A stretch of 64,000 bases of DNA from Alphaproteobacteria bacterium. Lineage in GTDB: Bacteria; Pseudomonadota; Alphaproteobacteria; Rickettsiales; SXRF01. The notes under the pieces are model-generated. The model saw only the letters and a program-made list of their open reading frames with translations. It made no database searches and was not told the DNA's origin. Below are positions 2,771-52,393 of the stretch, one piece after another. How positions within the stretch are numbered: position 1 is the stretch's first letter; every line of letters starts with the position of its first letter. Both the position numbers and the translations under genes were made by a program. The stretch spans positions 4,923 through 68,922 of the forward strand of contig JABDCD010000001.1 of the NCBI GenBank assembly GCA_013288305.1, in the 5' to 3' direction.

Positions 2771-3370
2771 ATGGCTCTCCCGCAACGTTACAATATCGAT
2801 TTTGGTCAATATAATCCCGTGAAAGAGACGCTGGGCGACCTTCTACTCGTTTTCAGAGAAATGTACGAGGTTATCGAAAATTGGGATGTTATGGAAGCGA
2901 ATGCAGTGAAACAGGAAGCAATAATGCGAGATTGTGGGGCAATGGAATTTAATCCACGTCCGGGGGAGAGCATCTCCATGTTGCGCAAGCTGCAAAGTGA
3001 CCTGGTCGGTCCCAGGCATATGGATAGGTTGCAGATCAAGGAATTAGCGGGGCGCTGGGAGTCATGCCTAGATAAACTGCTCGGATTTTATCAGGGTAGA
3101 GAAAACCGTCCGGGGGGATTTGCCAATGCACAAGAGGCTGCATCCCTGTTCGATTTCTTGTGGCTTCCCGGTTCAGGGGTGCCACGTCCTGAGGAATCGC
3201 CTTTGCACCGGTTACTTGATGTTGCCTGCGAGATTCGCAATCAACAAGTGGAGTTTGACAGGCACGGAGATTGGTCATGTTCGGGGAAAACTATACGCGA
3301 ATTGCTATATGCTATTCATACCGATATAGCAGCCGATATTCCGAAAGCTAAAAAAGAGGTCACTAGATAG
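2771..3370 (+). CDS. hypothetical protein (orphan, AT-shifted)
   Basis: 199-aa ORF with no motif I recognise. G+C is lower than in the neighbours. It converges on ubiG with an 8-nt overlap. Confidence 0.5.
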   Translation: MALPQRYNIDFGQYNPVKETLGDLLLVFREMYEVIENWDVMEANAVKQEAIMRDCGAMEFNPRPGESISMLRKLQSDLVGPRHMDRLQIKELAGRWESCLDKLLGFYQGRENRPGGFANAQEAASLFDFLWLPGSGVPRPEESPLHRLLDVACEIRNQQVEFDRHGDWSCSGKTIRELLYAIHTDIAADIPKAKKEVTR

Positions 3371-4223
3371 CTTTCCTCCCCGCCACCATATAATTCACCG
3401 CCAAATCCCCCGCATCCAGCCGCCATTCAAACGTCAGCGGATTCATCGCCATCCCGGTCATTTCCAGTATCTCGATATGATGATGGCGCAGATGGGCGCA
3501 GAGTTCCGACGGCCGCAGGAATTTATGCCAGTCATGCGTGCCGACGGGCAGCAAGCCGCACACATATTCCGCGCCGAGAATAGCCAGGGCGAAGGATTTC
3601 GCCGTGCGGTTGAGCGTGGAATAGATGATGAGTCCGCCCGGCTTCAGCAGCGCGCAGCTTGCCGCCACGAACGCCTCGACATCGGCGACATGCTCGATGA
3701 TTTCCAGCGCCAGCACGACGTCATATAGTGCTGAGTGCTGAGCGTTAAGTAGCGAGTTGTTTTTTTTCTCAGCACTCAGCATTGTGCACTCAGCACTTAA
3801 CTCCTCCACCGCCGCGCACCGATAATCAATCTCCAGCCCGCCCCGCTCGGCATGAAGCCTCGCCACCGCGATGTTTTTTTCCGAAGCGTCGATGGCGGTG
3901 ACGCGTGCGCCCAGCCGCGCCATCGGTTCGGCGATCAGCCCGCCGCCGCAGCCGATGTCTAAAAGGCGTAAGCCTTTTAGGGGATGTGGGGATGTGGGGA
4001 TGTGGGGATATGAGGATGAAGCCCTATCGTCTTTTTTCTCCACATCTCCACATCTCCACATCTCCACGTCGCGCTTCGATATCTGCTCCACTATCCACCC
4101 AATCCTTATCGGATTCATCCGATGCAGCGGCTTGAATTTGCCCTGCGGATTCCACCATTCCCCGGCGATGCGCGAGAAGCGCTCGATCTCGTCCTTATCG
4201 ACAGTGCTTGTGGCAGTAACCAT
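3363..4223 (-). CDS. ubiG: ubiquinone biosynthesis O-methyltransferase carrying two in-frame repeat insertions
   Basis: EIERFSRIAGEWWNPQGKFKPLHRMNPIR, the SAM motif LLDIGCGGGLIAEPMARLG, and LKPGGLIIYSTLNRT. Confidence 0.9.
   Translation of the reverse strand: MVTATSTVDKDEIERFSRIAGEWWNPQGKFKPLHRMNPIRIGWIVEQISKRDVEMWRCGDVEKKDDRASSSYPHIPTSPHPLKGLRLLDIGCGGGLIAEPMARLGARVTAIDASEKNIAVARLHAERGGLEIDYRCAAVEELSAECTMLSAEKKNNSLLNAQHSALYDVVLALEIIEHVADVEAFVAASCALLKPGGLIIYSTLNRTAKSFALAILGAEYVCGLLPVGTHDWHKFLRPSELCAHLRHHHIEILEMTGMAMNPLTFEWRLDAGDLAVNYMVAGRKAI
3727..3797. repeat. family B hairpin, in frame in ubiG
   Basis: agtgctgagtgctgagc ... T-run loop ... ctcagcactcagcattgtgcactcagcact. Confidence 0.85.
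3980..4067. repeat. family A hairpin, in frame in ubiG
   Basis: ggggatgtggggatgtggggatgtggggatatgagg ... ctccacatctccacatctccacatctccac. Confidence 0.88.
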
Positions 4224-4273
4224 AATGGTGCTATTGTCCTGCGCAATGATTTCTCAAAAAGGAACTATAACCT

Positions 4274-4660
4274 ATGCCCGGGCAAAAGCCGAATCTAAAA
4301 ACGATGCTGTGGGAACCCCTGGCGCAGGAGGCGTGGACGCTGGGCGATAAGCTGGTGCGCCGGGTATTCGGCGCAGCGGAAGGCTGGGAGAAGCGCCGCG
4401 ACATCGTGAAGAACAATTACGACCTCGGCGTGCGCTACCTCAAAGACGGCTATGTGGGCGATGCCATGTTCCGCTTCAAGCTCGTGACCTGGCTCGACCC
4501 CAGCCATGCCGAGGGCTGGTACGGCCTGGGCGCCGCGTATGTTGCCGGCGGCAAGCAGGCGGCGGCGGAAAAAGCGCTCAAAAAAACCCTGGAGATCAAA
4601 CCCGATTATCCGGAAGCGTCGCAACTGCTGGCAACCCTCGAAGGCAACGCTGCGCAATGA
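4274..4660 (+). CDS. tetratricopeptide-repeat protein
   Basis: TPR-like repeats: GDAMFRFKLVTWLDPSHAEGWYGLGAAYVAGGKQAAAEKALKKTLEIKPDYPEA. The start is uncertain; 4313 is an alternative. Confidence 0.65.
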   Translation: MPGQKPNLKTMLWEPLAQEAWTLGDKLVRRVFGAAEGWEKRRDIVKNNYDLGVRYLKDGYVGDAMFRFKLVTWLDPSHAEGWYGLGAAYVAGGKQAAAEKALKKTLEIKPDYPEASQLLATLEGNAAQ

Positions 4661-5109
4661 CGGAAATAACCCTCCGCCCCGCCACTGAATCCGAGGCGAA
4701 AATACTTACAGCGATACATCAAGAATGCTTTCCAACTTATTGGAGTATAAATTCATTTAATGATTTCTTCTCCGTGGACGGAACGCTGGCGCTGCTAGCT
4801 GAAAATCCCCATGCTGTCGGCATGATGGTCTACCGCCTCCACCATGAGCAGGCCGATATTATCACCATCGCCGTCCGCCCTGCCTGCCGCCGCCGCGGCA
4901 TCGCCCGTGCCCTGCTGGCGCAGGCCATGCAGACCATGGCCTCACGCGGCGTAAACGCCATCTTCCTCGACGTCGAGGACGGCAACGTCGCCGCGCTGCA
5001 ACTCTATGAAACGCATGGCTTTACCGTCATCAACCGCCGCAAGCACTATTATAAGCAAAAGGACGGAAGTTTCACGGATGCGCTTGTCATGACGCGGAAA
5101 TTAAGTTAG
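4657..5109 (+). CDS. rimI: ribosomal-protein-alanine N-acetyltransferase (GNAT)
   Basis: GNAT motif A, IAVRPACRRRGIARALL, and a RimI-like length. Its start overlaps the upstream stop (ATGA). Confidence 0.8.
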   Translation: MTEITLRPATESEAKILTAIHQECFPTYWSINSFNDFFSVDGTLALLAENPHAVGMMVYRLHHEQADIITIAVRPACRRRGIARALLAQAMQTMASRGVNAIFLDVEDGNVAALQLYETHGFTVINRRKHYYKQKDGSFTDALVMTRKLS

Positions 5110-5189
5110 TGGTCAGTGGCCGGTTGTCAGTGGCCAGTCAGACAGCCAGTTTCGCGCCCTTACTGACCACTGGTCACTGATCACTGGAC
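5110..5189. repeat. hairpin family C (GTCAGTGGCC), intergenic rimI|lysC
   Basis: tggtcagtggccggttgtcagtggccagtcag ... ctgaccactggtcactgatcactggac. It starts directly after the rimI stop. Confidence 0.8.
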
Positions 5190-5199
5190 ACTACAAATT

Positions 5200-6429
5200 A
5201 TGGCACTCATAGTTCAAAAATTCGGTGGCACCTCGGTGGCCGACATCGGGCGCATCAAAAACGCCGCGGCCAAGGTCAAAAAAGAACTCGACCTCGGCAA
5301 CCGGGTCGCCGTCGTCGTCTCGGCGATGGCGGGCGTGACCAACCAGTTGGTAAAATTTGTCGAGGAGCTGTCGCCGCTGACGACGGACGAAGCCTGGCGC
5401 GAATACGATCAGGTGGTATCGTCCGGCGAGCAGGTGACGAGCGGGCTTCTGGCGCTGGCCTTGCACGAGATGGGCATCCCGGCCTGGTCGTTCGCCGGCG
5501 GGCAGGTTCCGCTCAAGACCGACATCGTCCACGGCAAGGCACGCATCCACAGCATCGACGCCCAGGCGATCCATAAAGCGCTGGATAACGGCATGGTCGC
5601 CGTCGTCGCCGGGTTCCAGGGCATCACGCCCGACGGCCGCATGGCGACGCTGGGGCGCGGCGGCTCGGATACCTCGGCGGTGGCGTTGGCCGCGGCGCTC
5701 CATGCCGACCGCTGCGATATTTATACCGACGTCGACGGCGTCTACACCACCGACCCGCGCATCGTGCCGGGCGCGCGCAAGCTCGATAAAATCGCCTACG
5801 AGGAAATGCTGGAGATGGCCTCGCTCGGCGCCAAGGTATTGCAGACGCGCTCGGTCGAGATGGCGATGAACCACGGCGTGGTGGTGCAGGTATTGTCCAG
5901 CTTCGCCGACGCGCCGGGAACCTTATTGGTCAAGGAAGAGGAGTCTATGGAACAGCAAAAAATCACCGGCATCGCCTACAGCCGCGACGAAGCGCGCGTC
6001 ACCCTCACCGGCGTACCCGACAAGCCCGGCGTGGCGGCGGGCATTTTCGGGCCGCTGGCCGAAGCCAACATCAATGTCGATATGATCGTCCAAAACATCG
6101 ACGAGATCGGCCGCGTCACCGACATGACCTTCACCGTCGGCAAGGCCGATCTCGACCGCGCCATCGCCGCCCTCGAAAAAGCCCGCCCCGTGCTGCAATA
6201 TAAGGACCTCACCGCCGACAAAAACGTCGCCAAGATTTCGGTGGTCGGCGTCGGGATGCGCAGCCACGCCGGCGTGGCTTTAGACATGTTCAAAACGCTG
6301 GCGGAAAAAGGCATCAACATCCTGGTCATCTCGACCTCGGAAATCAAGATCAGCGTGCTGATTGCGGAGGAGTATACGGAGTTGGCCGTCCGCGCGCTGC
6401 ATCAGGCGTTTGGGCTGGAGAAGGCGTGA
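5200..6429 (+). CDS. lysC: aspartate kinase
   Basis: MALIVQKFGGTSV, GRGGSDTSAVALAAAL, DVDGVYTTDPRIV, and C-terminal ACT domains. Confidence 0.95.
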   Translation: MALIVQKFGGTSVADIGRIKNAAAKVKKELDLGNRVAVVVSAMAGVTNQLVKFVEELSPLTTDEAWREYDQVVSSGEQVTSGLLALALHEMGIPAWSFAGGQVPLKTDIVHGKARIHSIDAQAIHKALDNGMVAVVAGFQGITPDGRMATLGRGGSDTSAVALAAALHADRCDIYTDVDGVYTTDPRIVPGARKLDKIAYEEMLEMASLGAKVLQTRSVEMAMNHGVVVQVLSSFADAPGTLLVKEEESMEQQKITGIAYSRDEARVTLTGVPDKPGVAAGIFGPLAEANINVDMIVQNIDEIGRVTDMTFTVGKADLDRAIAALEKARPVLQYKDLTADKNVAKISVVGVGMRSHAGVALDMFKTLAEKGINILVISTSEIKISVLIAEEYTELAVRALHQAFGLEKA

Positions 6430-7010: not shown

Positions 7011-8135
7011 ATGACTAACCATTTAAATTCTCTGTGGCGGCGCGGCGCCCACTTCCTTGGCTGCCAGTACGCCATCATGGGCGGGGCGATGTCGTGGGTT
7101 TCCGAGCGCAACCTGGTGGCGGCGCTTTCCAACGCCGGGGCGTTCGGTGTGATTGCCTGTAGTTCAATGTCGCCGGAATTGCTGGATAAGGAGATTACTG
7201 AAACCAAAAAACTTCTTACTTCCCCCTCCCCCGGTCGGGGGGAGGGCCGGGGAGGGGGTGACAAGGGAAATATTACTCGTGAAGCCCCCTCCCTAACCCT
7301 CCCCCCTGCAGGGGGAGGGGACAAGGTGCCCTTCGGCGTCAACCTCATTATCATGCACCCGCAGATGGATGCGCTCATCGAAGTCTGCAAAAAGCACAAC
7401 GTCTCGCACGTCGTGCTGGCGGGCGGCATTCCCAAGGATGGCTGGATCAAGGCGATCAAGGCCTATGGGGCGAAGGTGCTGTGCTTCGCGCCATCGGCCA
7501 TCATCGGCCGCAAGCTGGTGCGCCTCGGCGCCGACGCGCTGGTGATCGAGGGCATGGAGGCGGGCGGCCATATCGGCCCGGTCTCGACCTCGGTGCTGGC
7601 GCAGGAAATCCTGCCGCACATGAAAGACGTGCCGGTGTTCATCGCCGGCGGCATCGGCCGCGGCGAGGCCATCGCCGCCTATCTCGAAATGGGCGCATCC
7701 GGCGTCCAGCTGGGCACGCGCTTTGTCTGCGCCACCGAGTGCATCGCCCACCCGAACTTCAAGGAATGCTTCATCCGCAGCCAGTCGCGCGATGCCATCC
7801 CCTCGGTGCAGATCGACCCGGATTTCCCGGTCATCCCCGTGCGCGCCATCGCCAACAAAGCCACCGACGCCTTCACCCGGATGCAGCACGAAGTCATCGC
7901 CGAATTCAAGAGCGGCAAGCTCGATAAAAAAGAAGCGCAGCTCAAGATCGAACATTTCTGGGCCGGCGCCCTGCGCAAAGCCGTCATCGACGGCGACATC
8001 GAGTACGGCTCAGTCATGGCCGGCCAGAGCGTCGGCATGGTCAGCAAAATCCAGCCGGTGAAGGAGATTCTGGAGGAACTGATCGGGCAGGCGGAGGAGT
8101 ATATTACCGGGCGAAACTTAATCCCCAAAAAGTAA
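7011..8135 (+). CDS. NAD(P)H-dependent flavin oxidoreductase / nitronate monooxygenase family (FabK-like) with an in-frame repeat insertion
   Basis: GGAMSWVSERNLVAALSNAGAFGVIA, ALVIEGMEAGGHIG and FIAGGIGRGEAIAAYLEMGASGVQLGTRF. The insertion is at 7221-7326. Confidence 0.85.
   Translation: MTNHLNSLWRRGAHFLGCQYAIMGGAMSWVSERNLVAALSNAGAFGVIACSSMSPELLDKEITETKKLLTSPSPGRGEGRGGGDKGNITREAPSLTLPPAGGGDKVPFGVNLIIMHPQMDALIEVCKKHNVSHVVLAGGIPKDGWIKAIKAYGAKVLCFAPSAIIGRKLVRLGADALVIEGMEAGGHIGPVSTSVLAQEILPHMKDVPVFIAGGIGRGEAIAAYLEMGASGVQLGTRFVCATECIAHPNFKECFIRSQSRDAIPSVQIDPDFPVIPVRAIANKATDAFTRMQHEVIAEFKSGKLDKKEAQLKIEHFWAGALRKAVIDGDIEYGSVMAGQSVGMVSKIQPVKEILEELIGQAEEYITGRNLIPKK
7221..7326. repeat. two tandem CTTGTC-(C)nTCCCC hairpin modules (family E), in frame in the NMO-like gene
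   Basis: tccccctcccccggtcggggggagggccggggagggggtgacaagg and ccccctccctaaccctcccccctgcagggggaggggacaagg. Confidence 0.85.
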
Positions 8136-9338
8136 CATTTGCCGATTGTCCGTGGCTTTTTGTCTTTTTTTCTTTTGTTGCGTTGGTTTTCTGATTGGAA
8201 GAAATGCGCGTATCATATTTTTACGCGCTTTATATCCGCCTTCTATCAGTTTGATTAAATCCATCTCTACCAATGCATTAATATCTCTTGATATGGTTTT
8301 AGGAGTTTTTTTTGCATAATCTGCAGCTAAATCCGCTGTTAGTTTACTGAGTTGTGCTTTTGGAACAGGTTTGTCAGCCTTCGATAAGGCAAGTACTAAA
8401 GTACGCCTTCTTTTACCTGAGTTAGAATTATCGTTCCGAAATTGAGTATGAACAAAATTAGTCCACGTCACGTCAATTTGTTGTTCCCGTATAACGTCTA
8501 TTTGCTCCTTTAATTGCTCAACAAATCCCGTAACTGCATATTGAATAAAAGGCAATAAATCACCCCCAGACTTACTCGCTACATCTAACTGTCTGTAATA
8601 CTCTGTTCGTGTAAGGTTATAATAATTACTCAAAAGATGGGCTGCATCAGAGGGAACTCCAGATTCCATTAAAAATTTTAGCTCTAATAATCTGGCTGTT
8701 CTTCCATTGCCATCGCCAAAGGGATGTATCCATACAAAGTAAATGTGAGCCACTATAGCCTTGATAATACCATAAACGATTTCATTTCCTGCATTGGTAG
8801 CGAAAGTAGTCCCGTTCATCCATTTGCAAAATTCATTGACCAAATAAGGGCAATCCTCTGGAGGGGGACAGCGGTACCTGCCTACAACACGCGAGTCTTT
8901 GCGAATTTCACCAGGAATTACATCTTCTCCAACCGCTAGCTCGCTAAGAATCTGGCTATTAAAATGTGCGAGTAAATCTGATGATAAAGGAACGATTTCT
9001 CCCTTTTTAATTGGCTCTAAAACTCCGCCGAACGCAGACAAAATGTTTTGTATTTCTTTTATTAGGTATTCTCTAGAACGGGGTAAATGAAGCGTTCCAT
9101 CCAACGATTTCAAAACCTCTTCTTCTGATAGAGTATTGCCTTCTATCGCAGTTGTAGCAAATGCACCTTTAGCCAGATAAAGTCTGTGCAGTTTTTCTGC
9201 CGTGTCCGGACGCAATGGAATACCGGCAATATGCTCGCATTTAGATTGAGCTTCTCCTAGGGCTAACCATAAATGTGGAGATGCAGGTTTAAGATCAATA
9301 TTGAATGTAATCCAAGGATGTGTTTTTTTATATATCAT
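8118..9338 (-). CDS. Fic family protein (AMPylase-type) with a C-terminal winged-helix-like tail
   Basis: Canonical Fic motif HPFGDGNGRTAR. An N-terminal inhibitory-helix motif, TTAIEG, fits [ST]xxxE[GN]. The gene is AT-rich. Confidence 0.88.
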   Translation of the reverse strand: MIYKKTHPWITFNIDLKPASPHLWLALGEAQSKCEHIAGIPLRPDTAEKLHRLYLAKGAFATTAIEGNTLSEEEVLKSLDGTLHLPRSREYLIKEIQNILSAFGGVLEPIKKGEIVPLSSDLLAHFNSQILSELAVGEDVIPGEIRKDSRVVGRYRCPPPEDCPYLVNEFCKWMNGTTFATNAGNEIVYGIIKAIVAHIYFVWIHPFGDGNGRTARLLELKFLMESGVPSDAAHLLSNYYNLTRTEYYRQLDVASKSGGDLLPFIQYAVTGFVEQLKEQIDVIREQQIDVTWTNFVHTQFRNDNSNSGKRRRTLVLALSKADKPVPKAQLSKLTADLAADYAKKTPKTISRDINALVEMDLIKLIEGGYKARKNMIRAFLPIRKPTQQKKKRQKATDNRQMLLFGD

Positions 9339-9516
9339 AATATATGGCCTCCTTAATGTCCGATGAAATGTCTAACACCGTTAGTCATTAATATTTTGAT
9401 ATTAAACACAAATATATATTATATAATAAAAAATGTCCGCATCGATGTCCATATAATAGTCCAATACAATATTCAAAACAAGTAATGACATTGCATATGT
9501 ACTGAAAGCGCATTGA

Positions 9517-9525
9517 TGTTATAAT
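9517..9525 (+). promoter_or_regulatory. candidate extended -10 (TGTTATAAT) upstream of ptsP
   Basis: TGnTATAAT lies 6 nt before the GTG start. I saw no clear -35. Confidence 0.3.
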
Positions 9526-9531
9526 CTTTGC

Positions 9532-12362: not shown

Positions 12363-12366
<4 letters not shown>
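11800..12366 (+). CDS. RodZ-like helix-turn-helix membrane protein
   Basis: HTH segment [36 protein letters not shown], followed by a TM segment [20 protein letters not shown]. It abuts the ptsP stop. Confidence 0.7.
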
Positions 12367-13617
<1,251 letters not shown>

Positions 13618-13628
<11 letters not shown>

Positions 13629-14943
13629 ACTCCAGCCCGTCCGCGGTACGCACGATATTTTGCCGGAGGAATTCGAGAAATTCCACGCCGTGGTGACGCG
13701 CGCGCGCGAACTCGCTACGCTGTACGGCTTCCGCGAAATGGCGACGCCGATTTTCGAAGCGACGGAAGTGTTTTCGCGCTCGATGGGCGAAACCTCCGAT
13801 GTAGTGAGCAAGGAAATGTTCACCTTCCAAACCAAAGGCGAGGAAAGCGTCACGCTCCGCCCCGAATTTACGGCGGGCATCGTGCGCGCCTTTCTCTCCA
13901 ACGGAATGCAGCAACATCTGCCACTTAAATTATTCTCCACCGGCTCCTTGTTCCGCTACGAACGCCCGCAAAAAGGCCGCCAGCGCCAGTTCCATCAGGT
14001 GAATTTTGAGTGGCTGGGGGATGATAGCTGGGAAGCGGATGTTGAATTGATCTGTCTTGCCGGACATTTGCTTTTTAGTTTGTCAGGTAAAAAAGGCTGT
14101 ACACTGCTTATCAATACATTAGGAGATCAGGAAAGCCGCGCACGATATCGCGAGGCTCTAGTAGGATATCTCGCCCCATATACCAAAGAATTATCAGAGG
14201 ACAGTCAACGACGGCTTGCCACCAATCCGCTACGCATCCTCGATTCCAAAAGTCCCCAAGATAAAAAAATTATCGATGGTGCTCCCCAAATAACGCATTA
14301 TTTGAATGAATCAGCACGTAAACGCTTCAATACGGTACATGAGGCGCTGAGCCAAAAGGAAGTGCCTTTTTTCCAATCAGTAAAAATTACCCCTTCTTTG
14401 GTGCGTGGGCTTGATTACTATACCGACACAGTTTTTGAATTTGTGGCTGAAGCGGGTGAATTAGGTGCACAGAATACTGTGCTTGCAGGTGGCCGTTATG
14501 ACGGACTGGTGGAGCAGATGGGTGGAAAGCTCACGCCTGCGATTGGCTTTGCCGCGGGCATTGAGCGTTTGTTGTTATTAACGCACGAATTAAAATGGTC
14601 CAAGCTGAATGATATCAGCATAGTGGTTCTACCGTTTGAGGAAATAGAACCTAATGTTGTTTTGTATATAGCTGCGAGTTTACGAAACAGATTGCTGGGT
14701 TGGCATTTACATACAAAAAGAAGATGTACTGTAGAAATAGCATGGCGCGGTAGCGTTAAGAAACGAATGGAACGTGCGGCTCAAAGTGATGTAACACATT
14801 TGATCCTTTTACCTCCTGAAGAGGCAAATCGAGAATCATGCATTATCCGATACATGAAAATACATGAACAACAGGAAATAAAGATTGCTGACCTGTTTGA
14901 CACGGACAAGCTCGCAAAACTATTAGAAATACCAACGAAATGA
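13618..14943 (+). CDS. hisS: histidyl-tRNA synthetase (compositionally chimeric)
   Basis: [28 protein letters not shown] and [10 protein letters not shown] are the class II motifs. Start chosen at MSPKLQ, with AAGGAG 8 nt upstream. Confidence 0.92.
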
Positions 14944-16010
14944 GCTTCTCCGATCGCCTCGACACGCTGGTGCGGCGCCACCAGGAATTGAACGACCTGC
15001 TGGCGGGCGGGCAGGTCAGCGGCTCCGATTTCGCCAAATATTCCAAGGAATATGCCGACCTCACGCCGCTGGTGGGAACTATCCTGGCCTATCAGGGCGC
15101 GCAAAAATCGCTCCTGGACGTGAAGGCTATGATGGCCGACCCCGCCTGCGACGCCGAGATGAAAAAAATCGCCGAGGAGGAGATGCACGACATCCAGCAC
15201 GCGCTGCCGGAGCTGACGCGCGCCGTGCAGCTGGCGCTGTTGCCCAAGGATGCCGCCGACGAGAAAAACGCCATTCTTGAAGTTCGCGCCGGAACGGGCG
15301 GCGAGGAAGCGGCGCTGTTCGCTGCCGATCTGTTCCGCATGTATCAGCGTTACGCCCAGAATCAGGGCTGGAAATTCGAGGTGCTGTCGGTATCCGAATC
15401 CGGCGTCGGCGGCACCAAGGATGCCTCGGCGGAAATCACCGGCAAGGGCGTCTTCGCCCGGATGAAATTCGAATCCGGCGTGCACCGCGTGCAGCGCGTG
15501 CCCAAAACCGAGGCGCAGGGGCGCATCCACACCTCCGCCGCCACCGTCGCCGTGTTGCCCGAGGCCGAGGAGGTGGACATCCACATCGAGGACAAAGACC
15601 TGCGCATCGACGTCTTCCGTTCCAGCGGCCCCGGCGGCCAGTCGGTCAACACCACCGATTCGGCCGTGCGCATCGTGCACCTGCCGACCGGCCTCATCGT
15701 CCAGCAGCAGGACGAAAAATCGCAGCACAAGAACAAAGCCAAGGCGCTCAAAGTCCTGCGCGCGCGGCTGTATGAGATGGAGCGCGAAAAGCTGGCCAGC
15801 GCGCGGGCGGCCTCCCGCAAGGAAATGGTCGGCTCGGGAGACCGCTCCGAGCGCATCCGCACCTATAATTTCCCGCAGGGCCGCGTCACCGACCACCGCA
15901 TCAACCTCACCCTCTATAAAATCGACGAGGTAATGAACGGCGATCTTTCCGAATTCACCGATGCATTGATTGCCGAAGACCAGGCCAGGCAGCTGGCTGA
16001 ACTCAGCTGA
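14940..16010 (+). CDS. prfA: peptide chain release factor 1
   Basis: GGQ motif in [24 protein letters not shown] and an RVPKTE tripeptide-anticodon region. Its start overlaps the hisS stop (ATGA). Confidence 0.96.
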
Positions 16011-16011
16011 T

Positions 16012-16962
16012 ATGCAAAATACCCCTTTGCAATTCCCCTTTTTTTCTGCTAAAGACGCTTTGCGCGATGCGGTAAGGTCGCTCGCGCGGGCCCGGATTGA
16101 AACGGCGTCGCTGGATGCAAGGTTATTGCTCCAGCATGTTTTGAACATAAGCCATGAACGGTTGCTGGCCGATGAAAAGCTGGCATTGATGCCGTTTCAA
16201 GAAGCGGATTATCAGGAGTTGGTTAAAAAGCGCTGCCTTCGTAGGCCGGTCGCGCAACTTATCGGCAAGCGCGAGTTTTATGGCCGGACGTTCAAGGTGA
16301 CGGAAGATACGCTCGATCCGAGGCCGGATAGTGAAACGCTGATCGAGGCGGTGCTGGAATGGGTCAATGGTCATAGGTCACGGGTCATGGGAAAAGAAAA
16401 ATTACCCATGACCTATGACCCAAAACCCATGACTATTCTCGATCTAGGCACGGGAACCGGCTGTTTGCTGCTGACGTTGCTGAAGGAATATGAAAATGCC
16501 AAAGGAGTTGGCGTGGATATTAGCGAAGCGGCGCTGAATGTGGCGCAGGAAAATGCGGAAAGCTTGGATGTGCGGGAACGCGCGGAATTTGTGCATTCGC
16601 ATTGGGATCAAAACATAGAAGGAACATTCGATATTATCGTCGCCAACCCCCCTTATATTCCAACCAATGCCATCGCCGCGCTGGCGCCGGAAGTGGCGCA
16701 GTATGAACCGAAACTCGCGCTCGATGGCGGCGCGGACGGGCTGGAATGCTACCGCGCCATCCTGCCGCCATTGCCGCGATTGCTGGCTGCCGGCGGGTTT
16801 GCCGCCTTTGAGATCGGGCAGGGGCAGGAAGAAGACGTAAAAGAATTAGTTGCTAGTTGCCAGTTGCGGGTTGCTGGCATCAAGAAAGATTTAGGAAATA
16901 TTTCTAGATGCATATTGGTACGGAAATCAGGCAATAACCAGCAACTGGCAACTAGCAACTAG
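16012..16962 (+). CDS. prmC: release-factor glutamine N5-methyltransferase (HemK) carrying repeat-derived segments
   Basis: SAM motif ILDLGTGTGCLLL and catalytic IVANPPYI. It starts 1 nt after the prfA stop. Confidence 0.9.
   Translation: MQNTPLQFPFFSAKDALRDAVRSLARARIETASLDARLLLQHVLNISHERLLADEKLALMPFQEADYQELVKKRCLRRPVAQLIGKREFYGRTFKVTEDTLDPRPDSETLIEAVLEWVNGHRSRVMGKEKLPMTYDPKPMTILDLGTGTGCLLLTLLKEYENAKGVGVDISEAALNVAQENAESLDVRERAEFVHSHWDQNIEGTFDIIVANPPYIPTNAIAALAPEVAQYEPKLALDGGADGLECYRAILPPLPRLLAAGGFAAFEIGQGQEEDVKELVASCQLRVAGIKKDLGNISRCILVRKSGNNQQLATSN
16361..16433. repeat. tandem-heptamer-arm hairpin, family D (GTCATGG), in frame in prmC
   Basis: gggtcaatggtcataggtcacgggtcatggg / loop aaaagaaaaatta / cccatgacctatgacccaaaacccatgac. 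Confidence 0.87.
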
Positions 16963-17613: not shown

Positions 17614-17898
17614 ATGAAGATCACGTATGATCTGAAGAAAAACGCCGCCAATATGGCCAAGCACGGCGTTTCATTCGAGGATGCGTACGAGTTTGATTAT
17701 GCCGATTTTGCCGGCTGCCAATATAAGATCGACAGGCGAAGGGATTATGGCGAAGTGCGCTGGATAGCCACCGGCTATCTTCATAACAGGTTGCATGTGC
17801 TTTGTTATGTGGAAAAATTTAATGGTATCCGCGCCATCAGTTTTCGTAAAGCCAACGAAAGGGAAAGGAAAAAATATGAAAAAAGATCAGTACATTGA
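17614..17898 (+). CDS. brnT: BrnT family toxin (DUF497)
   Basis: YDLKKNAANMAKHGVSFEDA...RWIATGYLHNRLHVLCYVE...IRAISFRKANERERKKY. Confidence 0.85.
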   Translation: MKITYDLKKNAANMAKHGVSFEDAYEFDYADFAGCQYKIDRRRDYGEVRWIATGYLHNRLHVLCYVEKFNGIRAISFRKANERERKKYEKRSVH

Positions 17899-18181
17899 AT
17901 ATGAAGATGGAACGCGCGTGCTTCTGGATGAAGACGACGTGCCGGAACTGACCGACGAGGATTTTAAAAGGATGGTGCCGTTCAGCGCGCTACCCAAATC
18001 GCTGCGGCGCAAATTGTCGGCCATACAAAGCCGAGGTCGCCCGCGCTCGAAAGCGCCCAAGAAGATGATCGCCTTCCGCTTCGCGCCGGATTTGCTTGCC
18101 CACATCAAGGCGTCAGGCCGCGGCTATAACGCCCGCGTCGAGAAACTGCTGCGCCAGGCGTGGGAGCAGGGGTTACTGTAG
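17876..18181 (+). CDS. brnA: BrnA family antitoxin (DUF4415-like)
   Basis: It overlaps the brnT 3' end by 23 nt. Contains GRPRSKAPKKMIAFRFAPDLLAHIKASGRGYNARVEKLLR. Confidence 0.8.
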   Translation: MKKDQYIEYEDGTRVLLDEDDVPELTDEDFKRMVPFSALPKSLRRKLSAIQSRGRPRSKAPKKMIAFRFAPDLLAHIKASGRGYNARVEKLLRQAWEQGLL

Positions 18182-51157: not shown

Positions 51158-52393
51158 ATGGCTGACGTTGCGGTGAAAATCGATTCTTCAACAGAGGCTC
51201 AGAATCCAGGGTCTGAATCCGAATCGCCTATCTATAGTACAGGCGTTCTGCCCTATCAGGCGCTCAAGGAGATGGTGAAGAGCGGCGAAATTAAGACGGA
51301 AATTCTTACTGAAATTATTGAAGATCAGATTCAACCCGCCAGCATCGACTTGCGATTGGGACATTTTGCCTATCCTGTAGATACCAGTTTTCTTCCGGGG
51401 TCAGGTATAAAAGTACTGGAAAAAATGCGACAACTGGATGAGCGCTTTGACGATTTTAAAATCGACCTGAGATCGGGCGCGGTTCTTGAAAGAGGAAGGG
51501 TATATGTCATTCCTCTTTTGGAAGAGGTCAATTTAAAGAGCAGTATGAAAAGTGAAATGCGGGGATTTGCCAATCCCAAAAGCTCCACGGGCAGGCTCGA
51601 TATTCTTACGCGTTTGATCACTGATGAAGGCACTAAGTTTGACCAGGTAAGAAGTGGCTACGAAGGAAAACTCTATGTTGAAGTGGCGCCACGCAGCTTC
51701 AGTATTATTGTTAAAACGGGCACCTGCCTCAACCAATTGCGATTTCGTCGTACCCGAGGTGCTGAATTACAGGCTATTACCTCGGAGAAATGGAAAAGCC
51801 TTCTCGAAAGTGGGCAAATTGCCTACACCCAAGATAACCAAAAACAGTCTAGTGAAGAGACCGGGAAGCTACGCTTTACTATTGATTTGCAAGGATCGGG
51901 GGCGGAAGGGGAGATTGTTGGATGGCGAGCCAAAAAACATGCTAAACGCATTGATCTGGCAAAAATCAACCATTACGACCCGCTCGATTTTTGGGAGCCT
52001 ATCTGCTTCCACAAAAGCGCCTCACTTATCCTCGACCCGGATGAATTCTATATTTTGATGACCAAGGAAGCCATCGCCGTGCCGCCCGATTATGCTGCCG
52101 AGATGCTGCCGTACGACACCCGCGCTGGCGAATTCCGCGTACATTACGCCGGGTTTTTCGATCCCGGCTTCGGCTGGGACGCCCTCACTGGCAAGGCGGG
52201 TAGCAGCCGCGGCGTCCTCGAAGTCCGTTCGCACGAAGTGCCGTTTTTATTGGAGCACGGCCAAACCGTTGGTTGGCTGCGCTATGAACGCATGATGGCC
52301 TGCCCGGATAAACCTTATGGTCAGGGCATTAGCTCAAATTACCAGAACCAAACGCTCAAACTCGCCAAGCAGTTCCGGGCGATGAGCGCCTAG
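51158..52393 (+). CDS. 2'-deoxycytidine 5'-triphosphate deaminase (DCD, two-domain PF06559-like) family protein
   Basis: IQPASIDLRLG, GAVLERGRVYVIPLLE, ANPKSSTGRLDILTR, and PRSFSIIVKTGTCLNQLRFRR. The gene is AT-shifted. Confidence 0.75.
   Translation: MADVAVKIDSSTEAQNPGSESESPIYSTGVLPYQALKEMVKSGEIKTEILTEIIEDQIQPASIDLRLGHFAYPVDTSFLPGSGIKVLEKMRQLDERFDDFKIDLRSGAVLERGRVYVIPLLEEVNLKSSMKSEMRGFANPKSSTGRLDILTRLITDEGTKFDQVRSGYEGKLYVEVAPRSFSIIVKTGTCLNQLRFRRTRGAELQAITSEKWKSLLESGQIAYTQDNQKQSSEETGKLRFTIDLQGSGAEGEIVGWRAKKHAKRIDLAKINHYDPLDFWEPICFHKSASLILDPDEFYILMTKEAIAVPPDYAAEMLPYDTRAGEFRVHYAGFFDPGFGWDALTGKAGSSRGVLEVRSHEVPFLLEHGQTVGWLRYERMMACPDKPYGQGISSNYQNQTLKLAKQFRAMSA

Follow-up and report, generated by a model that had tools for sequence, protein, structure and literature searches.

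The 64,000-nucleotide stretch analysed here (the window; positions 4,923 to 68,922 of contig JABDCD010000001.1, assembly GCA_013288305.1, from an alphaproteobacterium of the Rickettsiales) carries an intact hisS gene (13618-14943, plus strand; 441 codons and a stop codon), predicted to encode a canonical bacterial histidine--tRNA ligase (HisRS, class IIa), in which the G+C content falls abruptly about one third into the coding sequence. Across the clade to which the window belongs, hisS consists of two modules, and the edge between these modules coincides with the compositional step. This step is very probably a feature of the whole lineage and not a private foreign import. Indeed, the AT shift of the 3' silent sites occurs in essentially every clade member, whatever the G+C content of the host. 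The 3' module probably recombines within the clade. The explanation that best accounts for these data is a lineage-wide two-module hisS gene, the hypervariable 3' module of which is exchanged within the clade as a cassette exempt from the force that enriches silent sites in G+C; taken as a whole, we hold it to be about evenly poised between right and wrong.

The sequence-only reading of this stretch had described hisS as a gene with a GC-rich 5' third and an AT-shifted remainder, based on 40 G+C out of 60 nucleotides in 13681-13740 and 23 out of 60 in 14041-14100, counts that proved exact. It had placed the switch near position 14030, around codon 137 and just after class II motif 2. The maximum-likelihood changepoint agrees with this, falling at position 14039 when all positions are considered and at codon 134 (position 14020) for third positions. 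The low G+C content indeed persists to the stop codon and returns to 0.63 immediately 3' of hisS. Likewise, the reading frame and the class II motifs are intact, with motif 2 at 13951-13998 and the GGRYD motif at 14488-14502. The AT-shifted 3' two-thirds are thus as described, but the 5' third is not unusually GC-rich, as its G+C content at third codon positions (GC3) amounts to 0.72 versus 0.75 in the flanks. Hence, the anomalous part of hisS is its 3' two-thirds, the 5' third being normal for the genome.

The overall G+C content is 0.575 in 13618-14019 and 0.434 in 14020-14943, with 0.615 in the flanking ispG part and 0.631 in prfA. Almost the whole of this shift occurs at silent sites, as the G+C contents at the first, second, and third codon positions (GC1, GC2, and GC3) are 0.59, 0.41, and 0.71 before the step and 0.55, 0.38, and 0.36 after it, so that GC1 and GC2 barely change. 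Counted by codon, G or C occupies the third position in 97 of the 134 codons of the 5' part versus 113 of the 307 codons of the 3' part (approximately 0.72 versus 0.37; Fisher p = 4e-12). The G+C content at fourfold degenerate sites (GC4) is 0.90 before the step and 0.40 after it; the other genes of the window have a GC4 of 0.84, the window flanks of hisS a GC4 of 0.87, and the intergenic DNA a G+C content of 0.48. The composition of the 3' module is therefore atypical for the host (GC4 of 0.40 versus 0.84-0.87 in other genes). The changepoint in hisS GC3 has a log-likelihood ratio (LLR) of 24.2, the maximum in 5000 codon shuffles being 12.0, and represents the strongest intragenic GC3 step among the 74 open reading frames (ORFs) of the window, followed by runners-up with LLR values of 13.0 and 12.7.

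Scans of genome and metagenome collections, in which all relatives of the window are metagenome-assembled, yielded 23 clade loci (with labels within L001-L008 and L081-L098) together with many ordinary alphaproteobacterial loci. Below, W stands for the window sequence and W-codon for the codon numbering of the window hisS gene. The gene order ptsP-rodZ-ispG-hisS-prfA-prmC-DUF4167 is conserved among the clade loci, and L089 is the closest relative overall (89% for PtsP and 86% for PrfA). In 20 of 20 clade loci, GC3 was higher in the 5' part of hisS than in the 3' part (Wilcoxon p = 2e-6); over these 20 loci, the 5' GC3 differs from that of the flanks by 0.01 ± 0.11 and the 3' GC3 is lower by 0.20 ± 0.13. 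A changepoint at W-codons 118-151 was retrieved in 11 of the 16 full-length clade loci, including L001 and L089, the latter stepping from a GC3 of 0.64 to 0.34 at W-codon 137. The GC4 values of flank, 5' part, and 3' part are 0.87, 0.90, and 0.40 for the window, 0.88, 0.88, and 0.40 for L085, 0.81, 0.80, and 0.35 for L089, 0.79, 0.79, and 0.31 for L004, and 0.50, 0.56, and 0.24 for L006. Averaged over the clade, GC3 drops from 0.57 in W-codons 121-140 to 0.35 in W-codons 141-160 and stays at 0.34-0.47 up to the end of the gene. Even in the conserved island of codons 261-320 (conservation 0.82-0.91), the clade GC3 is still 0.40-0.45. By comparison, the GC3 profile is flat in 64 other alphaproteobacterial hisS genes, in which the 5' and 3' parts differ by -0.07 to +0.12. 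The composition of relatives had been named by the sequence-only reading as a test of its recombination hypothesis; what was found is a step common to the clade instead of private to this genome, and abrupt in the relatives instead of gradual. Since the boundary is old, lying at the same codon across the clade, the step is inherited and not a fresh scar.

The phylogenetic placement of the two parts of hisS points in the same direction. Neighbour-joining trees of 41 taxa, with 100 bootstraps, were built for residues 1-134 and residues 135-441. The different placement of the two halves that a foreign origin of the 3' part had been expected to give did not appear, as the core clade was retrieved in 100 of 100 bootstraps with both parts and L001 and L089 were nearest to the window in both. 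Support for the grouping of W, L001, and L089 was 88 with PrfA, 65 with the 5' part, and 74 with the 3' part. The exact HisRS protein of the window is on record in three source collections, and the next best proteins are 72-74% identical, the named ones originating from metagenome-assembled genomes of uncultured Alphaproteobacteria, 'Rickettsiales', or Pseudomonadota. A HMMER search with residues 135-441 against 1.84 billion representative proteins returned one clade representative at 307 bits, followed by ordinary HisRS proteins at no more than 209 bits; among these representatives, the clade itself excepted, nothing matched the 3' part more closely than ordinary alphaproteobacterial HisRS proteins do. 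The best matches outside the clade to the 3' part (L010, L009, and P0122; 44-45% identity) are alphaproteobacterial HisRS proteins, and these rank among the top matches of the 5' part too. As the step is shared by the nearest relatives and both halves are placed identically, the step is no record of a recent foreign import. The earlier proposal that the 3' portion had been replaced by recombination with a foreign allele therefore holds in part. Recombination of the 3' part within the lineage is supported by the collapse of similarity between L006 and L084 and by saturated silent sites, both described below, but an allele from outside is not, as no closer protein was found beyond the clade among the representatives searched.

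At the protein level, amino-acid identity between the window and its relatives follows a steep gradient along HisRS, from ~95% in the 5' part (94-96% to the best relatives) over ~72% in the middle to ~35-45% in the anticodon-binding domain, and the same gradient is found among the relatives themselves. Clade pairs are 27-52% identical in the anticodon-binding domain, except for L082-L086, which are 73% identical. The window is no outlier in 3'-versus-5' protein divergence (residual -0.017).

A separate history of the 3' module is indicated by silent sites. At residues shared by two sequences, the frequency of identical synonymous codons was expressed as an excess over an amino-acid-specific null. 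Between the window and L089, this excess amounts to 0.34 for ptsP, 0.42 for rodZ, 0.33 for ispG, 0.26 for prfA, 0.43 for prmC, and 0.47 for the 5' part of hisS, versus 0.09 for the 3' part; the DUF4167 gene falls within 0.26-0.47 too, unlike the 3' part of hisS. The pairs window-L001 and L001-L089 show the same silent-site behaviour, the synonymous similarity of the 5' part between the window and L001 being flank-like (0.35); prmC of L001 is normal as well (0.23). Over 66 clade pairs, synonymous similarity of the 3' part was below the flank mean (p = 2e-6), while that of the 5' part was not. Similarly, when the window is compared with L089, the Nei-Gojobori proportion of synonymous differences (pS) amounts to 0.40 for the 5' part of hisS but reaches 0.76-0.78, a saturated level, for the 3' part; of the six flanking genes, five have a pS of 0.45-0.50 and the DUF4167 gene one of 0.60.

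The clearest case is that of L006 (hisS at 4001-5299) and L084 (hisS at 187-1422), the closest pair sampled, with 96% identity in PrfA, 77% in PrmC, and 97% in HisRS residues 1-134. Identity drops to 76% in residues 135-320 and to 34%, equal to the clade background, in the anticodon-binding domain. By comparison, the more distant pair L082/L086 has 92% identity in PrfA, 91% in the 5' part, 81% in residues 135-320, and 73% in the anticodon-binding domain, and the silent-site similarity of its 3' part is flank-like (0.23). Amino-acid identity between L006 and L084 is 0.90-1.00 up to W-codon 140, 0.45 in W-codons 141-160, and 0.17-0.30 through most of the anticodon-binding domain; DNA identity, averaged over windows of 60 bases, is ~0.85 upstream, falls to ~0.63 between nucleotide ~415 and the stop codon, and regains ~0.85 in prfA. 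Judged from these alignments, the 3' module of this pair is best described as having been replaced at the same junction at which the GC step occurs, and this pair indicates that the 3' module is replaceable independently of both the 5' module and prfA. Branch patterns of sequence trios differ from those of the flanks, although the neighbour-joining trees keep the major groups. For W, L001, and L089, the pattern of the anticodon-binding domain is [18,9,23] against [83,168,76] for the flanks (p ~0.001), and the pattern of the trio L006, L084, and L082 differs from the flanks as well (p = 3e-10, with sparse sampling). An exchange appears to have taken place in the window's own lineage too, as suggested by the saturation of its silent sites and its discordant anticodon-binding domain; because no relative has a close 3' module, this replacement is inferred and not seen.

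In one further clade locus, L081 (WBZO01011700.1; hisS at 3017-4318), both parts of hisS have a silent-site similarity of about zero to L006 and L084, while the flanking ispG, prfA, and prmC genes keep a similarity of 0.13-0.27 to these loci. L081 is therefore a candidate for replacement of the whole hisS gene.

Several ordinary causes of a compositional shift do not account for the step. Amino-acid composition is not responsible, since a 3' GC3 of 0.71 would be expected from the codon usage of the window, as opposed to the 0.37 observed. Nor is residue conservation, as invariant and variable residues of the 3' part have GC3 values of 0.42 and 0.34, respectively, those of the 5' part having 0.71 and 0.74; because GC3 is low at invariant and variable residues alike, the 3' AT shift is regional and not site-wise. 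In addition, the correlation between GC3 and protein conservation is weak in the flanks (rho 0.33-0.54), rodZ, a poorly conserved neighbour, still has a GC3 of 0.7-0.85, and the conserved motif-3 island of the window hisS gene has a GC3 of 0.27-0.63. Expression or translational selection was rejected, as one mRNA carries both halves and the genes for EF-G (GC3 0.79) and EF-Tu (GC3 0.77) equal the window average. Uniform mutation pressure was rejected too, given that the 3' part responds only weakly (slope 0.37, r 0.42) to the GC4 of the flanks, which varies between 0.36 and 0.91 from host to host. An import from clade members of low G+C content does not suffice, since even hosts with the lowest G+C content have a 3' part that is poorer in G+C than the flanks (0.15 versus 0.36 in L092). 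Furthermore, no GC-rich 3' allele was found in nine GC-rich clade hosts. These last two results imply that a simple model of a common allele pool fails to explain the AT shift. Finally, the hisS junctions displayed no direct repeats, no mobile-element signatures, no conserved nucleotide motif, and no excess of promoters or terminators.

The mechanism proposed would act on an intact and ordinary hisS gene in its ancestral position, with codons 1 to ~138 highly conserved and genome-like and codons ~139-441 fast-evolving and AT-shifted. The 3' module would be swapped between clade members by homologous recombination, with crossovers anchored in hisS codons 1-138 (75-95% DNA identity within the clade) on one side and around the hisS/prfA boundary or in prfA on the other. 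The cassette between these anchors may be too divergent to pair and would be carried over whole, so that no mismatched heteroduplex would form within it and GC-biased repair would be without a substrate. Its silent sites would then relax to an AT-biased mutational equilibrium, as in intergenic DNA. The 3' GC4 of 0.40 is indeed near the intergenic G+C content of 0.48, a neutral-like composition. GC-biased gene conversion as the explanation of the AT shift is the weakest step of this scheme, and we put it forward tentatively, as possible but doubtful. Taken further, the tRNA-binding rear half of HisRS, with its insertion and anticodon-binding domains, could consist of ancient, divergent allele classes, a trans-species polymorphism shuffled within the clade under diversifying or balancing selection, for instance in a toxin or phage arms race over HisRS or tRNA-His, with the AT shift as the long-term signature of a segment that never undergoes GC-biased conversion; this is an unlikely scenario in our view.

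A number of observations weigh against the scheme just outlined. The rodZ gene, poorly conserved and yet GC-rich at silent sites, indicates that the gene-conversion idea does not hold generally at this locus. The 3' GC4 of the low-GC relatives L081, L082, L086, L093, and L008 is about that of their flanks. Only one reference pair calibrates the contrast between L006 and L084, and L084 consists of a short contig from a metagenome. For residues 135-320, the branch pattern of W, L001, and L089 ([11,18,10]) is flank-like. For the 3' module of the window, neither a donor nor a near-identical allele turned up, the synonymous excess being at most 0.17 with any relative. The tree of the 3' part keeps the major groupings of the flanks, which is compatible with vertical descent and fast evolution as well. 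Polarised substitution counts in trios, aimed at detecting ongoing amelioration, were uninformative, because the parsimony bias mirrors composition.

Some of these observations fit a purely vertical history, in which relaxed constraint on the 3' part of the protein is combined with local AT-ward evolution of silent sites, caused by hypermutation or by a missing GC-favouring force. The shared groupings of the 3' tree and the flanks, the clade-typical 3'-versus-5' divergence of the window, the flank-like branch pattern of residues 135-320, and the pair L082/L086, the 3' part of which is neither AT-shifted nor more diverged at silent sites, would all be in keeping with such descent. Yet, the anticodon-binding domain of L006/L084 lies at the background level of 0.34, with a nonsynonymous divergence (dN) of 0.61 versus 0.20 in L082/L086, which is not clock-like, and that of window-L089 would need a ratio of nonsynonymous to synonymous divergence (dN/dS) of ~0.9 despite a confidently predicted fold. 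Moreover, no mechanism is known to us for a mutational hotspot of 900 bp edged by a codon and a stop codon. Vertical descent is thus rather improbable, though far from negligible. A single ancient chimera, made in the clade ancestor by fusion of a foreign AT-rich 3' part after motif 2 and not yet ameliorated, would explain why the position of the junction is kept throughout the clade, down to its deeper branches L007 and L092, and why the clade's anticodon-binding domain is only ~0.18 identical to that of other alphaproteobacteria, ~0.40 being typical at the same 5' divergence. However, the 3' silent sites are saturated within the clade, so that an inherited composition should have equilibrated, and flank GC4 differs by ~0.3 between GC-rich and low-GC members, the 3' part differing far less. 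In addition, residues 135-320 lie at the expected outgroup distance and have the same best outgroups as the 5' part. Such an origin is very unlikely.

A recent replacement of the 3' part by foreign AT-rich DNA in this genome, the GC step being an unameliorated scar, is suggested at first sight by the abruptness of the step and its extension exactly to the stop codon, by the saturation of the 3' silent sites relative to the nearest relatives, and by a G+C content as low as that of accessory genes of the window, such as a Fic gene with a GC3 of 0.29. It is largely refuted and highly improbable, given that L089, L001, and L085 carry the same step at the same codon, that both parts of the gene fall into one clade and have the same nearest relatives, that nothing nearer than ordinary alphaproteobacterial HisRS was retrieved from outside the clade among the representative proteins searched, and that the junctions lack repeats and mobile-element signatures. 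Selection on the nucleic acid itself might alternatively favour AT-rich or rare 3' codons that slow down translation for folding or dimerisation, an unstructured mRNA, or an AT-rich DNA target regulating prfA-prmC. The regional nature of the step, its conserved position, its independence of residue conservation, and its occurrence in hosts of very different G+C content would suit this possibility. We nevertheless give it little credence, as neither a conserved nucleotide motif, nor an excess of promoters or terminators, nor a repeat was found, the silent sites are saturated instead of conserved, several clade members are without the offset, and the 64 other alphaproteobacterial hisS genes are flat. 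Lastly, assembly or binning could have joined a GC-rich locus to the 3' part of hisS of a co-occurring AT-rich relative via the conserved 5' region. All relatives are metagenome-assembled, and the nucleotide identity of the 5' part (75-93%) is high enough for assemblers to be misled locally. Such an artefact is hardly credible, however. A further crossover would have to fall precisely on the hisS/prfA junction, where conservation is poor, and 20 assemblies made independently, from various studies and habitats, all display this pattern. Besides, the exact protein has been recorded in three source collections.

The assignment of the hisS product as HisRS is supported by the TIGR00442 hisS equivalog (424.4 bits versus a cutoff of 286.75), which aligns residues 6-422 with model positions 1-405 of 406, by a Pfam tRNA-synt_His match to residues 10-318, and by the best sequence matches in the PDB, namely the HisRS proteins of E. 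coli, T. thermophilus, and S. aureus. An in-frame ATG is present at 13600, but comparison of hisS starts indicated that relatives start elsewhere. An AlphaFold2 (AF2) model built from 54 clade sequences has a predicted local distance difference test score (pLDDT) of 82.8 and aligns with solved HisRS structures (1adj, 4e51, and 4rdx) across ~437 columns. The Pfam HGTP_anticodon domain (PF03129) scores only 12.5 bits on the window HisRS, below the cutoff of 21. In the AF2 model, residues 333-435 form a domain of alternating strands and helices with a pLDDT mostly above 90; despite the sub-threshold Pfam score, the protein is thus predicted to possess a C-terminal alpha/beta anticodon-binding domain. 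PF03129 is annotated for only some of the clade relatives in precomputed annotations (clade proteins P0001-P0120). Domain-based annotation would therefore under-call the anticodon-binding domain of the clade's HisRS. A tRNA-His gene was not found in the 64-kb window.

The 5' module comprises codons 1-134 (13618-14019, plus strand), contains motifs 1 and 2, and has the silent-site composition of the rest of the genome. Class II motif 2 with its tRNA-binding loop, read from the sequence, covers residues 112-127 (13951-13998, plus strand), 14 of the 16 positions being invariant in the 54-sequence clade alignment, with K119 and Q122 nearly so. The compositional and evolutionary junction, defined by the changepoints and the profiles of relatives, lies at codons ~134-141 (14020-14040), just after the sequence ...NFEWLGDD. 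The 3' module (codons 135-441; 14020-14943, plus strand), with AT-shifted silent sites and fast evolution, contains the insertion domain, the HisA and HisB motifs, motif 3, and the anticodon-binding domain. Within it, the histidine-binding motif RGLDYY (residues 263-268; 14404-14421, plus strand) and the GGRYD motif (residues 291-295; plus strand), both read from the sequence, are invariant in the 54-sequence clade alignment. The anticodon-binding domain (residues ~333-441; 14614-14940, plus strand) is hypervariable across the clade. At its 3' edge, the low-GC segment is bounded by the sequence ATGA (14940-14943, plus strand), in which the start codon of prfA overlaps the stop codon of hisS.

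Both neighbours of hisS, located on the same strand and in conserved synteny, may serve as anchors, namely ispG upstream (12363-13628; left anchor; 80-87% identity with clade orthologues and a GC3 of 0.75) and prfA downstream (14940-16010; right anchor; 72-88% identity and a GC3 of 0.83). Between the conserved end of ispG and the start of hisS, a perfect 12-nt inverted repeat (TTGTCATCCCGA ... TCGGGATGACAA, 33 nt apart) occupies 13550-13606. The ispG ORF reads through this repeat into a low-GC tail, and the repeat occurs once in the window. The ispG match of L003 also ends in ...GNCHPER, and a similar element may occupy the same place in relatives. On the other side, prmC (15970-16962) has a GC3 of 0.58 versus 0.73-0.83 in its neighbours; L089, L004, and L001 share this feature, whereas L002 and L005 do not. 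As the GC3 of prmC is lowered too, prfA forms a GC-rich conserved island between AT-shifted, fast-evolving segments. Further downstream, a low-GC patch (17614-18181) just after the DUF4167 gene contains a gene for a BrnT-type ribonuclease toxin (Pfam match of 68 bits), which overlaps a small downstream ORF that may code for a putative antitoxin. Upstream of the locus, a Fic/DOC-family gene (8118-9338, minus strand; GC3 0.29) is followed by a 193-nt spacer of 28% G+C directly upstream of ptsP; together (8118-9531), they form an accessory-type low-GC island in a window of 57% G+C. The runners-up among the intragenic GC3 steps are a gene with an ORF6N domain (1119-1763), with a step in the opposite direction from 0.46 to 0.80 at codon ~122 (LLR 13.0), and a dCTP-deaminase-like gene with DCD_N, DCD, and DCD_C domains (51158-52393), in which GC3 changes from 0.44 to 0.70 at codon ~269 (LLR 12.7, the third strongest step).

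Mosaic genes arising by homologous recombination are exemplified by pbp2x and pbp2b of Streptococcus pneumoniae and penA of Neisseria. Exchange of the hisS 3' module would resemble these in that blocks of high divergence with abrupt edges, inside a conserved essential gene, are passed between related lineages through crossovers in conserved flanks. It would differ from them in that no selective agent is known for hisS, the edge of the block lies at one codon across a deep clade, and silent sites are AT-shifted in every allele. According to the model attributed to Lawrence and Ochman, islands of atypical composition reportedly mark imported DNA that ameliorates over time. The codon usage of the hisS 3' segment is likewise far from that of the host, and its GC4 of 0.40 resembles that of the low-GC accessory genes of the window, but this segment is orthologous and syntenic in all relatives and shows no amelioration despite its saturated silent sites. 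Bacterial GC3 is said, in work ascribed to Lassalle et al. (2015), to be driven by recombination-linked GC-biased gene conversion, a statistical effect at the scale of genes. In agreement with this, silent-site G+C content at the hisS locus is regional and unrelated to expression, and the non-anomalous regions are well above the intergenic level; a change from 0.90 to 0.40 within one gene, with a codon-sharp edge, is different, and the link to recombination is here a presumed one.

Among synthetase-related proteins, HisZ is a HisRS paralogue that regulates ATP phosphoribosyltransferase. The window protein shares with HisZ the fold of the class II catalytic domain and the 5' motifs, as reflected in a partial TIGR00443 match, but it keeps an anticodon-binding domain and passes the hisS equivalog model. 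Identity as HisZ was therefore rejected (TIGR00443 at 165.3 bits versus a cutoff of 271.65; anticodon-binding domain present). Replacement of HisRS by horizontal transfer has been described for the RRCH clade of Alphaproteobacteria (Ardell and Andersson 2006, summarised in PMC3937112), which acquired a whole foreign HisRS gene with a changed motif-2 loop and a co-diverged tRNA-His (PMC3937112). The window hisS gene is comparable in that the history of an aminoacyl-tRNA synthetase gene is decoupled from that of the genome and tRNA-binding parts are involved. Unlike in the RRCH clade, however, the motif-2 loop is of the canonical bacterial type (GRQRQFHQ), both halves of the gene are native to the clade, and only the 3' part seems decoupled. 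A description of an intragenic GC step in hisS was not found in the searchable literature.

In annotation, a sudden change of G+C content inside a gene is commonly taken as a sign of recent foreign import or of a chimeric assembly; for this hisS gene, such an inference fails, the step being inherited and lineage-wide. With two silent-site regimes (GC4 of 0.90 and 0.40) in one gene under identical expression, and in hosts with a locus G+C content ranging from 42 to 60%, hisS of this clade offers a natural experiment on the G+C content of bacterial genomes. The pattern speaks against uniform mutation pressure and translational selection and in favour of a force acting regionally, biased conversion linked to recombination being one example. 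For an essential enzyme such as HisRS, a hypervariable module that is apparently exchangeable and comprises the insertion and anticodon-binding domains would be unusual.

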